This document shows positions 42,146-57,989 of a stretch of 64,000 nt of DNA, piece after piece (position 1 is the first letter of the stretch; each line of letters starts with the position of its first letter). The notes under the pieces are model-generated. The model saw nothing but the letters and a program-made list of their open reading frames with translations. It searched no databases and was not told the origin of the DNA. Both the position numbers and the translations under genes were made by a program. The stretch is from an uncultured Actinomycetes bacterium (GTDB lineage: Bacteria; Actinomycetota; Acidimicrobiia; IMCC26256; JACDBD01). The stretch lies in the NCBI GenBank assembly GCA_963768605.1, contig CAVYIP010000012.1:15688-79687 (forward strand). The letters are read 5' to 3'.

Positions 42146-42161
42146 CTGACGCCCCTGTCAG
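42146..42161. promoter_or_regulatory. 16-bp palindrome CTGACGCCCCTGTCAG upstream of the thiolase operon
   Basis: CTGAC-N6-GTCAG lies 16 nt upstream of the ATG at 42130 (minus strand). It is one of four related sites in the window. Confidence 0.5.
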
Positions 42162-42224
42162 GCCGATGTTGGGGACTTGCGAGTCCTGGGTAGGTGAGAC
42201 ATCTGTGCCTGAAGGGATGCTCTA

Positions 42225-42584
42225 GTGAACATGCTCGAACAACTCGAAGACCGACTGCACGAGGTCCCAGAGGACCTTCGTCAAGGTCCGGTGATCTTCG
42301 CCGCCGCTGCGTTGATCGGACCGTTCGTCCTTGTACTTCTCGCCGCGGTCGCGGGCCCCTCGCTGGCTTCGCCGCTCTTGACGCTGGCGGCCATCGTGTT
42401 CGTCGCCGCCGTCATCGGCTTCGCGTTGACGACCTTCCGGCGGTTCAGGGTGCAACAGGCGGAGAACATGCGCATCGAAGCAGCACGCTCTCGCCGTCGC
42501 AATCGTCGCCCGTCGGCGTCGCGCATCAGCCGAACCGACCCGGCATCGTCGGCGGACGCAGCCGACCAGCGCCGCGCGTCGTAG
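42225..42584 (+). CDS. small membrane protein (two TM segments, basic tail), hypothetical
   Basis: VIFAAAALIGPFVLVLLAAVAG and LLTLAAIVFVAAVIGFALTTF. Third codon positions are noticeably less GC-biased than in neighbouring genes. The start is either GTG 42225 or ATG 42231. Confidence 0.5.
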   Translation: MNMLEQLEDRLHEVPEDLRQGPVIFAAAALIGPFVLVLLAAVAGPSLASPLLTLAAIVFVAAVIGFALTTFRRFRVQQAENMRIEAARSRRRNRRPSASRISRTDPASSADAADQRRAS

Positions 42585-43694
42585 TCAGGGCCGGCGTAAC
42601 GCGAAGAGCTCGATGGGCTCGTCGAAGCCCTTCGGCAGGCGCCGTCCTGCGGGGTCGAACGTGAACGGCGCTTCGGGCGTCTCGGCGCGCTCGCGCAGGT
42701 CGGCGGTCACGAGAATCTCGTTGGGGACGGCCATGTCGGCGATCCTCGACGCCAGGTTCACCACCGGCCCGTAGAAGTCGCCGCCTCGACTCAAGATCTC
42801 ACCCACCGCGAGTCCACCCCGCGGGGTCACATTCGATTCTGATTCCGCAAAGTGATCGACGAGCGCGAGTGCGATCTCGGACGCGTCCTGCGGATCCAAC
42901 GCGACGAACATCACCTCGTCACCGATCAACTTCACGACGCGCCCACGATGCGATGTCACGATGTCGTACGCCGACCCCTCGAACTCGTCGACGATCGAAT
43001 GGAGCTCCTGAACGGGCAAGCGCTGAGAGAGCGGCGTGAATCCGACGAGGTCGACGAACCCGACCGCGACGTACACCGTGATCTTCGAGCTCGCCTCGGT
43101 ACGTGCCGCCGTGTTTCGCCGGACGGCGAGCTCCATGTGCGCCCGGAACAGGATCTCCAGGTGATCGGCCAGCAGATTGAGTGCGCCGATCGCGTCCAGC
43201 TGCGCACGCGCCAGCGCGAGCTCGCCCGCCTGCGCGTCCGTGATCGGAGTCTCCACGTCGGCGAGGAACAACGAGACCGCAGCATCGGCGATTCGCGCAA
43301 GCGATGACCCGAGCACACGGACGAACTGCATGAGCGACCGCTCGGGGAAGAGGTCCGTCGTCTCGCTGAACAGCTTGAACACGCTGACGTCGCCCGGCGT
43401 ATAGATGCGCTCGTCGACGTCATCGACCGGGAGCCCGATGGTCAGACTCAGCTGTCGGACCTGCTCGGCAGTCAGCCCGGTGCTCTCGGCCACCTCGCGC
43501 ATCGTGAGCCGTTCTCCCGGCCGGAGCGCGAGGTCGCCGGCGATCGCCGTGAGACGACCGGCGGCGGCGGCTTCGACCATCTGCTCGATGCCGAACCCGC
43601 GATCGGCGAGCCACTCGAGCAGCGCCAGTCGATCGGCGGCGTTCGGCGCCTTCGGGTCGTAGAGCCCCTTCGCCTCGTACTCGGCCGCGCCCAT
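42585..43694 (-). CDS. class III adenylate/guanylate cyclase with N-terminal helical regulatory region
   Basis: ATG at 43694. VAVGFVDLVGFTPLSQ, VKLIGDEVMFV, and GDFYGPVVNLASRI. Confidence 0.87.
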   Translation of the reverse strand: MGAAEYEAKGLYDPKAPNAADRLALLEWLADRGFGIEQMVEAAAAGRLTAIAGDLALRPGERLTMREVAESTGLTAEQVRQLSLTIGLPVDDVDERIYTPGDVSVFKLFSETTDLFPERSLMQFVRVLGSSLARIADAAVSLFLADVETPITDAQAGELALARAQLDAIGALNLLADHLEILFRAHMELAVRRNTAARTEASSKITVYVAVGFVDLVGFTPLSQRLPVQELHSIVDEFEGSAYDIVTSHRGRVVKLIGDEVMFVALDPQDASEIALALVDHFAESESNVTPRGGLAVGEILSRGGDFYGPVVNLASRIADMAVPNEILVTADLRERAETPEAPFTFDPAGRRLPKGFDEPIELFALRRP

Positions 43695-43705
43695 GCGTCG
43701 GGATG

Positions 43706-44368
43706 CTACGAGCCGTCGAGGCCGATCGCCTCGGCGAACGCCGCGCACCATTCGCCGTAGCCGGTGTCGTTGGGATGGAAGTCGTCGGCCGCATACTTCC
43801 CTTGCCACGGTGGTCCGGTGTGCGCCCAGGCGTCGGCGATGCGGAGCCCGGCGGCCGGCGCTTCGGCACGGATGATCTGGTTCAGCTCGCGCGTGCGGCT
43901 CGGTAGCAAGCCCTGCGGGATGGTCGCCAACACCGCGTTCGGCGGCAACACGTGGATCAGCTCCCGCAGCGCCTCGGCGACGCGCCGAAACCCGAAGCGG
44001 ATCACGTCGTTCGCGCCCGCCGCGCACGTGACCAGCTCGGGCTCACCCGCCTCGTTGATGCGGGGCACCTGCTCCCGCACGACGTCGGCGACACGCGCCC
44101 CGGTCACCGAGAGGTTGACGACGCGCCACGGGCGTCGCTGCTCGTCGTGCAGCCGCACGAGGAGTTGACCGACGTAGCCGCGGTCGGGCGCCGACGCGCC
44201 GATGCCCTGCGCAGTCGAGTCGCCCAGCGCCACCCACAGCGGTCCGTCTGCCTGCCGGGCGCGCTCGTTCGAAATCTCCCAGTACCGCCGGTACTCGCTC
44301 CCCAGGCCGAGCGTGGCGGCGACGCCGGGCCGCAACGTACGCATCAGCCGGCCCGTGAGGAAACCCAT
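43706..44368 (-). CDS. SGNH/GDSL-family hydrolase
   Basis: ALGDSTAQG (block I Ser), CAAGANDV (block III), and DDFHPND (block V, DxxH). Confidence 0.85.
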   Translation of the reverse strand: MGFLTGRLMRTLRPGVAATLGLGSEYRRYWEISNERARQADGPLWVALGDSTAQGIGASAPDRGYVGQLLVRLHDEQRRPWRVVNLSVTGARVADVVREQVPRINEAGEPELVTCAAGANDVIRFGFRRVAEALRELIHVLPPNAVLATIPQGLLPSRTRELNQIIRAEAPAAGLRIADAWAHTGPPWQGKYAADDFHPNDTGYGEWCAAFAEAIGLDGS

Positions 44369-44387
44369 TGCCCGTATCCTCCCAGTC

Positions 44388-56027: not shown

Positions 56028-57451
56028 GACATCTGCATCGACTTCGTCTCGAGGTACTCCTCGAGGCCGTACTTGCCGAGCTCGCGCCCGTGGCCGGACT
56101 GCTTGTAGCCACCGAACGGTGCCAACGGGTTGAAGTTCTGGCCGTTGATGTCGACCTGGCCCGGCCTGGATGCGGCGCGCGACCTGCGTCGCGTGCTCCT
56201 GGTCGCCGCCGAACACGCCGGCGTGCAGGCCGTAGATCGTGTCGTTGGCGATGCCGGACGGCGTCGTCCTCGTCGTCGTAGGGGATGATCGCCAGCACCG
56301 GGCCGAAGATCTCCTCCTGCGCGATCGTCATGTCGTTGCGGACGTTCTTGAACACCGTCGGCTTGACGAAGTAGCCCTTGTCGAGCCCCTCGGGGGCCTC
56401 GGCGCCGCCGGTGACGAGCTCGGCGCCCTCCTCGATCCCCTTGTTGATGTAGTTGCGGACGCGCTCGCGCTGCGTCTCGGAGATCAGCGGCCCGAGCCGG
56501 TTGCTCGGGTCGTTGGGGTCGCCGACCGTGTACGTCTCGGCGACCTCCTTCGACCGCTGACGCGATCTCGTCCTGCTTGGCGCGCGGGACGAGCATGCGG
56601 GTCCAGGCGATGCAGGTCTGGCCCGAGTTCATGAAGCAGCTGCCGACGCCGGCCTTCACCGCGTCCTCGACCGGGCGCGTCGGGCAGGATGATGAACGGC
56701 GACTTGCCGCCGAGCTCGAGCGTCACCTTCTTCACCGTGTCGGCGGCGAGCTCGGCGACCCGCTTGCCGGCCCGGGTCGACCCGGTGAACGAGACCATGT
56801 CGACGCCGGGATGCGATGGCGATCGCCTCGCCCACGACCGGACCCGGTGCCGGTGACGAGGTTGAACACGCCCGGCGGGAGCCCGGCGTCGTCGACGATC
56901 TCGGCGAGGATGAACGCGTTGAGCGGCGCCACCTCGCTCGGCTTGAGCACCACCGTGCAGCCGGCGGCGAGCGCAGGCGCGACCTTGGCCACGATCTGGT
57001 GCAGCGGGTAGTTCCACGGCGTGATGCACCCGACGACGCCCAACGGCTCCCGCACGACGAGCGAGTTGCCGATCTGCTCCTCGAACGGGAACTGGTTGAC
57101 GATGTCGACGTAGGAGCCCATGACCATCGCCGGCAGGCCGGCTTGGATCATCTGGGAGAACACCATCGGCATGCCGACCTCGCCGGTCACCGTCTCCGCG
57201 ATCTCCTGCATGCGGGCGGTCAGCCCTTCGTGCAGCTGCTGGATGTACTTCGCCCGCTCCTCGACCGTGGTCGCGCTCCACGCCTCGAACGCCCGGCACG
57301 CCGCCTTCGCCGCCTTGTCGACGTCCTCTGCAGTCCCCTCGGGGACCCGGCCCATGACCTCTTCGGTAGTGGCGTTGACCACGTCGATGGTCCCGGACCC
57401 GGTGGACGGCGTCCACGCGCCGTCGATGTAGAGCTTGTCGCGGTCCTGCAT
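56024..57451 (-). pseudogene. NAD(P)-dependent aldehyde dehydrogenase; about six frame breaks in the C-terminal half
   Basis: ATG at 57451 follows GAGGGGG. The frame is continuous to [10 protein letters not shown]. The conserved blocks PVVGEAIA / [13 protein letters not shown]...ELGGKSP / [18 protein letters not shown] / KEVAETY...EEIFGPVL / [10 protein letters not shown]... / QVDINGQ...[11 protein letters not shown] then alternate between all three frames. Breaks lie near 56842, 56817, 56680, 56560, 56255 and 56160. Confidence 0.85.
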
Positions 57452-57471
57452 GAAGGCCCCCTCGTCGCGAC

Positions 57472-57487
57472 TTGACTGCATGGTCAA
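57472..57487. promoter_or_regulatory. 16-bp palindrome TTGACTGCATGGTCAA upstream of the ALDH-P450 operon
   Basis: TGAC-N6-GTCA core, 21 nt upstream of the ATG at 57451 (minus strand). Confidence 0.45.
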
Positions 57488-57533
57488 TCTACCGCCGGGC
57501 GGCTGACCCGGCGACCGCGGACATCCCGCCCGG

Positions 57534-57977
57534 ATGTACGTCTTCTTCCCCGAGGCGGGGTTCATCGTCGGGACGGGCCCCTACGACCAGGTGCGCGGGT
57601 GGCTGCACGCCGACTCGCTCCGCTGGAGCTGGGGGTCGGTGCGCGGCCGCGAGGGCGACTGGCAAGGCGCGGTCGTGCGGCTGCCGGCGCCCGAGGCGCT
57701 CGACGCGCTCACCGCCGTCGGCTTCACCGGGCTCATGATCGACCGCGCCGGGTACGACGACCACGGCGCCGGCATCGAGGCCGAGTACACGCGCACCCTC
57801 GGGCAGGAGCCGCGGGTGAGCCCGGACGGCCGGCTGCTGTTCTACGACCTGCGGCGTGGGCTCGCGGCCTGCGTACACGACTCAGCAAGGCTGAGATCGA
57901 CGCGCTGCGGCGCAAGACCCTCGACCGCTCGGGCTCGCGCCGCCGGGCGCGCTCACGTGATCCGACGAGGACCCTGA
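57534..57977 (+). pseudogene. orphan C-terminal fragment of a larger envelope protein (possible sulfatase/LTA-synthase-like C-terminus), degenerate
   Basis: [29 protein letters not shown]...GFTGLMIDRAGYDD...RLLFYDLR is protein-like, but only 80 nt separate it from the ALDH start. A plausible continuation (WARGLRTRLSKAEIDALRRKTLD) lies in another frame. Confidence 0.35.
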
Positions 57978-57989
57978 CTACCCTGTCAG
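57974..57989. promoter_or_regulatory. 16-bp palindrome CTGACTACCCTGTCAG immediately upstream of the ACAD-FadD operon
   Basis: CTGAC-N6-GTCAG ends 2 nt before the ATG at 57992. Confidence 0.5.

Follow-up and report, generated by a model that had tools for sequence, protein, structure and literature searches.

Do the short inverted repeats that stand at the start of several catabolic operons in an uncultured actinobacterium form the operators of a single regulon and, if so, what kind of protein would bind them? The question is raised by a stretch of 64,000 nucleotides (hereafter the window; contig CAVYIP010000012.1, positions 15,688 to 79,687) from an uncultured member of the Acidimicrobiia, in which an earlier note, made from the sequence alone, had pointed out four copies of the 16-bp palindrome YTGAC-N6-GTCAR (YTGACNNNNNNGTCAR) as candidate operators. 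All four were recovered where they had been placed: the window contains exactly four matches, at 42146, 49063, 57472 and 57974, every one of them intergenic, against 0.23 expected (mean of 100 dinucleotide-preserving shuffles), and none of the 100 shuffles reached four. The stricter form CTGAC-N6-GTCAG occurs three times in the window against 0.07 expected, a value that agrees with the 0.06 chance occurrences estimated previously for 64 kb, and the core TGAC-N6-GTCA retrieves the same four sites with zero extra in DNA of 70.7% G+C. Allowing one mismatch added a single window site, at 29037, a yield which taken alone equals chance level.

We regard it as rather probable that these palindromes are operators of one dimeric helix-turn-helix repressor, encoded outside the window and belonging most probably to the TetR family. 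The earlier note had proposed a repressor operator of the TetR, GntR or IclR type, and this proposal is supported by the enrichment of the motif, its conservation and its fixed register with respect to the −10 box, TetR being the most likely family. A TetR repressor is the best candidate because at least 120 TetR genes carry the same motif in front of themselves, and because the TetR-type regulators RutR and McbR recognize boxes of the same layout. As in other TetR operators, the element is a palindrome in the range of about 14–20 bp with its halves one helical turn apart, it overlaps the predicted core promoter, and it is used on the own promoters of TetR genes. Overall, the system appears to be a sound but fairly ordinary type of bacterial gene switch.

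The occurrence of the motif extends well beyond this contig. With the acyl-CoA dehydrogenase (ACAD) protein we retrieved 80 orthologous loci, all from metagenome-assembled genomes (MAGs) of uncultured Acidimicrobiia/Actinomycetota and amounting to 1.2 Mb, in which the motif appears 82 times against about four expected from the window shuffle rate, an over-representation of approximately 19-fold. A motif as frequent inside genes as upstream of them would have spoken against a regulatory role, as the earlier note had recognized; instead, at least 80 of the 86 sites from these loci and the window are intergenic according to our own gene calls, in sequence whose intergenic fraction is 0.17, and four of the six 'genic' sites are artefacts of over-extended open reading frames (ORFs). 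One-mismatch sites (28 intergenic versus 13 genic) stand in front of the same gene families. At up to one mismatch, a site was found at ACAD in 51 of 75 loci, at the CYP125/124-like cytochrome P450 in 30 of 55, at aldehyde dehydrogenase (ALDH) in 11 of 22, at enoyl-CoA hydratase (ECH) in six of 25 and at zinc-dependent alcohol dehydrogenase (ADH) in two of eight, with occasional further sites at two other ACAD families and one MFS transporter. In some genomes, such as those of L021, L037, L042, L046 and L051, the ACAD and P450 promoters are devoid of the motif.

At the level of individual promoters, the fourth window site (CTGACTACCCTGTCAG, followed by 2 nt and ATG) recurs unchanged in 15 close orthologous loci, the third has counterparts in orthologous ALDH promoters that begin TAGATTGAC, TACATTGAC and TAGCCTGAC, and the site of the P450 promoters reads CTGACTACCGTGTCAG. 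Conservation in orthologous promoters, which the earlier note had named as a check, was observed for ACAD, P450, ALDH and ECH but not for the second site, whose motif is absent from all three orthologous LplA-like promoters available; for the thiolase behind the first site the loci compared contained zero orthologues. A search for ACAD homologues toward more distant genomes returned only relatives at least 84% identical, with no new contexts.

Across the 86 copies the arms are invariant, in a 5-N6-5 layout with half-sites 11 bp apart from centre to centre. Less strictly, the position before the palindrome (−1) is mostly C and the one after it (+17) mostly G, which extends the palindrome to 18 bp. 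The spacer is free except that position 6 tends to be A and position 11 to be T. Certain spacers do recur, such as ACGGTA in 30 P450 promoters and TACCCT in ACAD promoters, and this apparent conservation is explained by an embedded −10 box, since in the direction of the gene TACCGT and TACCCT both fit TANNNT. The shared CCYT spacer end singled out in the earlier note is accordingly not a separate signal: in the fourth site it is part of the embedded box TACCCT, and the T preceding GTCAG reflects a general preference for TGTCAG. Likewise, the T that replaces C at position 1 of the third site is position 5 of the overlapping −10 box TAGATT.

Palindrome and predicted promoter stand in a fixed register. 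In actinobacteria the −10 consensus reads TANNNT and leaderless starts are usual (PMC3898074). When each site was oriented to its downstream gene and the start of TANNNT was recorded relative to the palindrome, the box appeared at offset +5 in 43 of the 103 site–gene pairs (ACAD and P450) and at offset −4 in nine (ALDH and ECH); lesser clusters occur at +17 and between +24 and +26, and the background frequency at any one position is 0.002. In the window the fourth site shows the +5 register, the second and third sites −4 and the first +17. ECH genes carry their ATG inside the spacer (CTGACNNNGATGTCAG). From these positions the palindrome is predicted always to cover part of the region from about −37 to +8 relative to the transcription start. 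This register is the geometry of a repressor operator, since it overlaps the core promoter and does not correspond to class I or class II activator positions. Moreover, several start codons fall within the palindrome or follow it at a distance of 2 nt, which implies leaderless mRNAs. A scan for the sigma-70 consensus was uninformative in DNA of 71% GC. Most genes in loci L001–L080 display a TAGCCT/TAGGCT-type box 7–9 nt before the start codon and lack a ribosome-binding site, which suggests that transcripts in this lineage of Acidimicrobiia are leaderless as a rule.

The closeness of the four window sites to start codons, as previously claimed, agrees with the distances that we read from the sequence, and Pfam confirmed the gene names formerly assigned around them. 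Site 1 (CTGACGCCCCTGTCAG, 42146–42161) is a putative operator with a predicted span of about −29 to −14; a distance of 15 nt separates it from the start codon of an SCPx-type thiolase gene (ATG 42130, minus strand). The site stands 1 nt upstream of a putative −10 box TACATT (42139–42144, minus strand), deduced from the TANNNT rule (PMC3898074) and located 8 nt before that ATG, so that the thiolase mRNA is predicted to be leaderless or nearly so; its register (offset +17) recurs at other loci. The operon downstream (38208–42130, minus strand), delimited by Pfam and translation, encodes the thiolase (40924–42130), a DUF35/ChsH2-type OB-fold protein (40455–40916) and a two-domain family III CoA-transferase (38208–40458). 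Site 2 (CTGACGCCCTTGTCAG, 49063–49078) lies over the −10 box and the start codon of an LplA-like gene: it contains TTG 49072, which corresponds in the alignment to the GTG start codon of the LplA-like orthologues, and its first two bases are the last two of a putative −10 box TAGGCT (49059–49064, plus strand). The same −4 register was found in ALDH and ECH promoters. Preceding site 2 is an alkylsulfatase-like metallo-beta-lactamase gene, whose stop codon is 17 nt before the site. Pfam and orthologue alignment place a remnant of the LplA-like gene and then a short-chain dehydrogenase/reductase (SDR) gene at 49072–50425 (plus strand; SDR at about 49627–50425). In comparison with the 380-aa orthologue of locus L024, the LplA-like gene (49072–49620) is without about 200 internal codons and runs in frame into the SDR.

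Site 3 (TTGACTGCATGGTCAA, 57472–57487) is a putative operator placed where transcription of the ALDH–P450 operon is predicted to begin, 20 nt from the ALDH ATG (57451, minus strand). The putative −10 box TAGATT (57486–57491, minus strand) overlaps its first two bases at offset −4, and this promoter is predicted to yield a leader of about 30 nt with a GAGGGGG ribosome-binding site. The operon (54835–57451, minus strand, by Pfam) comprises ALDH at about 56025–57451 and a CYP125/124-like P450 from 54835 to about 56025, is syntenic with loci L027 and L002, and its intact P450 orthologue is closest, in a PDB sequence search, to the lipid/sterol hydroxylases CYP125, CYP124 and CYP142. Site 4 (57974–57989), also a putative operator, holds the −10 box TACCCT (57979–57984) in its spacer and ends 2 nt before the ATG (57992) of an ACAD; this ATG comes 8 nt after the box, so that the transcript is predicted to be leaderless. 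According to Pfam and PDB sequence searches, the operon (57992–61148, plus strand) consists of an intact ACAD (57992–59218) and a frameshifted FadD (about 59215–61148). Several orthologues that are 93–94% identical to this ACAD (P0011, P0012, P0017 and others) bear the JGI label '3-sulfinopropanoyl-CoA desulfinase', on account of which the substrate of the site 4 ACAD is uncertain.

Several of these window genes switch reading frame one or more times, namely the thiolase (near 41727), the SDR (49400–49800), P450 and ALDH (54835–57451) and FadD (59200–59800). Because their orthologues in other MAGs are intact and the closest relatives are long-read MAG assemblies, the frameshifts are probably indel errors of the assembly, pseudogene decay being less likely. 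The short distance of 0.5 kb between sites 3 and 4 in the window results from the truncation of a membrane protein gene between ALDH and ACAD; in relatives, where this gene stands complete (L002, 8068–9969; L007), the ALDH and ACAD starts lie about 2.1 kb apart. Only the last 147 codons of this gene of 633–648 aa are left, at 57534–57977, and its loss could be either a real deletion or a misassembly.

According to the mechanism that we propose, the half-sites (c)CTGAC and GTCAG(g) would be placed on the core promoter of each target in several ways, the −10 box lying within the spacer for ACAD (and for P450 in relatives), over an arm's first two bases for ALDH and LplA-like (and for ECH in relatives) or 1–10 nt downstream of the palindrome for the thiolase. 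A protein predicted to bind the four putative sites would thereby block RNA polymerase at the −10 box and at the point where transcription begins, in many cases on genes with leaderless mRNAs. If KstR, KstR2 and the FadR proteins of the TetR family are a guide, release would be brought about by an acyl-CoA or a related lipid intermediate, and the TetR repressor is probably acyl-CoA-responsive. The pathway induced would be of a lipid or sterol-side-chain-like kind, with P450 omega-hydroxylase, ALDH, ADH, FadD, ACADs, ECH, thiolase/DUF35 and CoA-transferases. It is possible, although we put it forward only tentatively, that uncultured Acidimicrobiia of soils and lakes share a lineage-wide regulon, so far undescribed, in which one repressor encoded away from its targets controls a catabolic cluster of a sterol-side-chain or branched-lipid kind through operators arranged around the −10 box and the leaderless start codon, and that CTGAC-N6-GTCAG is in addition an unrecognized pan-phylum operator of many TetR subfamilies with different ligand domains. 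No paper naming the motif was found in a literature search limited to open-access full text.

These data map, in a form open to testing, the regulation of a lipid/sterol-type degradation cluster of an abundant uncultured soil actinobacterial class, including the co-regulated operons and their promoters, many of them leaderless. The operator could serve to extract the full regulon and its regulator from MAGs, and a −10 box within the operator offers a compact design of repressible promoter for high-GC hosts. Furthermore, autoregulation of more than 100 TetR genes of many phyla via one 16-mer would aid the general prediction of TetR operators.

The link between the motif and the TetR family comes from a metagenome scan, in which CTGAC-N6-GTCAG was required to be followed, after 116–176 nt, by the TetR recognition-helix signature Y-x-[HY]-F-x-x-K. 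At least 120 matches to operator plus signature were obtained. Among the matches listed, all but one are TetR_N proteins, with several families of C-terminal domains; the TetR start codon falls between 11 nt before and about 40 nt after the end of the palindrome, tandem operators are common, and the symmetry continues beyond the specified bases, with A/T at −1/+17 in 58 of 109 self-sites and T/A at −3/+19 in 43 of 109. Closer to the window, all genes of this stretch and of the 80 loci (1057 in total) were clustered, the neighbours of exact, one-mismatch and two-mismatch sites were inspected, and TetR genes were sought with jackhmmer and tblastn. This inspection revealed no regulator gene next to a site. 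In agreement with the earlier note, no cognate factor was identified, and the search of 1.26 Mb gave only KstR-like TetR genes. A Pfam search for regulators among the other window genes returned a GAF-kinase/NarL pair alone, and the left flank beyond the window, reached via the SDR gene at 2245–3003, contained neither a TetR gene nor a site; for the ACAD at 61798–62877 there was no entry from which to continue. The TetR gene of the window itself (46991–47707; TetR_C_20), divergent from the alkylsulfatase-like gene, was said to carry a different palindrome, and so it does: the KstR-like sequence GAAACATGTTCC lies on its own promoter at 47717–47728, and this TetR is a second, separate system.

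A number of observations weigh against a TetR repressor acting on these operons, and they are best considered together. In the window and the 80 loci no TetR gene stands beside any site, so that a cognate TetR gene adjacent to a target in the same genome, as is usual for TetR operators, was not encountered; the only two TetR genes in 1.26 Mb, the one of the window and a homologue at the edge of locus L021, are both KstR-like and have a different palindrome. The presumed excess in the metagenome scan relies on the extended symmetry and on a rough estimate that about 10–50 matches would arise by chance in the entire collection, and the flanks differ, being C(−1)/G(+17) in the regulon versus A(−1)/T(+17) in most TetR self-sites. 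None of the TetR genes recovered is assignable to Acidimicrobiia. The best-looking candidate, the TetR of locus L189, annotated by JGI as 'fatty acid metabolism regulator' and carrying three CTGACA-N4-TGTCAG-like operators on its own promoter, had to be rejected as the factor in Acidimicrobiia, for it belongs to Polyangia-like Gram-negatives. In addition, the transcription starts used here are predictions from sequence, and of the four sites it is sites 3 and 4 for which conservation was seen outside this genome.

Comparison with characterized regulators places the palindromes in a familiar functional class. RutR of Escherichia coli binds as a TetR-type dimer to the 16-bp 5-N6-5 box TTGACCAnnTGGTCAA (PMC2475637), and McbR of Corynebacterium glutamicum, another TetR-type dimer, to TAGAC-N6-GTCTA (PMC2723105). 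With both the sites share a 16-bp palindrome whose 5-bp arms end in GAC and start with GTC around a 6-bp spacer, and site 3, read as its reverse complement (TTGACCATGCAGTCAA), agrees with the RutR box at 12 of the latter's 14 specified positions. They differ in that the outer base here is mostly C/G and the spacer is free, often with a −10 box, and in that RutR and McbR control pyrimidine or sulphur metabolism whereas lipid catabolism is concerned here. No orthologue of RutR or McbR was identified. Membership in a RutR regulon was rejected because only site 3 resembles the box, the other sites having CTGAC arms with other inner bases, and because the targets are lipid genes, whereas the RutR box stands before the pyrimidine-catabolic rut genes and carAB.

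In function the nearest parallel is the KstR regulon, in which a TetR repressor acts through a palindromic operator before many lipid and sterol catabolic operons (PMC1995591). As with KstR and KstR2 of mycobacteria and rhodococci, one palindrome is repeated here before CYP125-type P450, ACAD, FadD, ECH, thiolase-like and DUF35/ChsH-type operons. KstR-type repressors are released by acyl-CoA-type ligands, and the TetR-type FadR proteins of Bacillus (YsiA) and Thermus are acyl-CoA-responsive repressors of beta-oxidation genes, with published boxes of other sequences than CTGAC-N6-GTCAG. However, the KstR motif TnnAACnnGTTnnA has zero matches in the window and the sites are unrelated to it in sequence; the KstR-like element of the window, the AACATGTT palindrome on the promoter of the TetR gene at 46991–47707, is separate from the four sites. 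The regulon is thus of the same functional kind as those of KstR/KstR2 and TetR-type FadR, but it belongs neither to the KstR nor to the RutR regulon, since motif or targets do not match. A further likeness exists with the TetR of the L189 type, one of whose operators contains the start codon, as do the sites of ECH genes in Acidimicrobiia loci, although its contexts are Polyangia-like and Gram-negative and no orthologue was found near the regulon.

The remaining explanations differ in what would occupy the palindromes, or in whether anything does. That they bind no protein at all, being chance occurrences, RNA hairpins or terminators, or mobile or REP-like (repetitive extragenic palindromic) repeats, is improbable in the extreme, and we take this reading to be effectively refuted already. 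Chance is excluded by the window counts against shuffles and by the 82 copies versus about four in the loci, and a mobile origin is at odds with the unrelated flanks of the copies. Each site can form a hairpin of 5–6 bp. Compared with shuffled sequence the hairpin of site 4 is the more stable (z = −3.0), but those of the other three sites are ordinary (z between −0.1 and −1.8), and a T-run is missing behind all four. The location of site 2 after a stop codon would suit a terminator, yet the RNA would not include site 4 or the P450 sites, which precede the predicted transcription start, and variant copies (e.g. GTCGG, GTCAT) break the pairing with no compensation, the arms being conserved as sequence. 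Very unlikely, too, is a CRP/FNR-family protein acting as a global and possibly activating catabolic switch, coupled to a fatty-acid-sensing adenylate cyclase. The proposal draws on the 5-N6-5 layout of the CRP box TGTGA-N6-TCACA, on a cyclase gene (42585–44027) that adjoins site 1 and has homologues in eight related loci, and on P450 sites centred near −42 of the divergent ACAD promoter in some loci. Nevertheless, the half-sites are unlike those of CRP or of FNR (TTGAT-N4-ATCAA), most sites are predicted to be centred at about −30 to +1 and not at the activator positions −41.5 or −61.5, no CRP-family gene was seen, and site 1 is about 420 nt downstream of the cyclase stop codon.

A regulator other than TetR, either a GerE/NarL-type response regulator (30208–30873 in the window) or a GntR-, MarR- or IclR-type repressor, is unlikely. 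In its favour is the one-mismatch site at 29037–29052 (CCGACGGTGGCGTCAG). This site occupies the 43-nt spacer between a divergent SDR gene (28187–29023, minus strand) and the operon of a GAF histidine kinase and the NarL-type regulator (about 29067–30873), and it is probably a real fifth site, because the orthologous spacer of locus L209, from the genome of L016, holds a perfect one (CTGACGGCGGCGTCAG). CTGAC-N6-GTCAG can also be read as CTG-N10-CAG, the spacing of lux-type boxes, which would suit a GerE/NarL-type protein. A homologous kinase–regulator pair lies directly before the ECH site in L018, a MalT/LuxR-like gene is found 36 nt from the ACAD site in L025, and the lack of any TetR gene near a site also favours a factor of this kind. 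On the other hand, the motif is absent from the spacers of L210, despite the same synteny and a regulator 78% identical, and of L211, so that autoregulation is not conserved. The fifth site, flanked by a TAGACT box overlapping it at offset −4 on the SDR side and by a TAGGGT box at offset +26 on the kinase side, is as well placed for the SDR gene, and the regulator pair occurs in only one of the 80 ACAD loci. All this makes the NarL-type regulator a weak candidate for the cognate factor; the exact motif is directly linked to TetR genes and to no other family, and a TetR repressor encoded elsewhere in the genome is the explanation that we prefer.

Some minor observations concern the neighbourhood of site 1 and the TetR genes retrieved by the scan. 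The adenylate cyclase gene adjoining site 1 encodes a class III enzyme with an Rv1264-type regulatory domain (Ad_Cy_reg), mycobacterial relatives of which are regulated by fatty acids. Between its stop codon and site 1, the roughly 420 nt at 42162–42584 are without a convincing ORF: one of 156 aa seems spurious, and the frame plot gives an ambiguous picture there. Among the TetR genes of the metagenome scan, a subgroup in operon with a diiron protein (L085, L087, L090 and others) was considered as a source of the regulator and rejected, as it regulates its own operon and has no link to the lipid cluster. The high-GC TetR genes of L085, L087, L090, L149, L173, L183 and L200 are co-transcribed with a 370-aa protein of unknown family and are preceded by two tandem operators, the first with a −10 box and the second containing the ATG (CTGAC-ATG-nnn-GTCAG).

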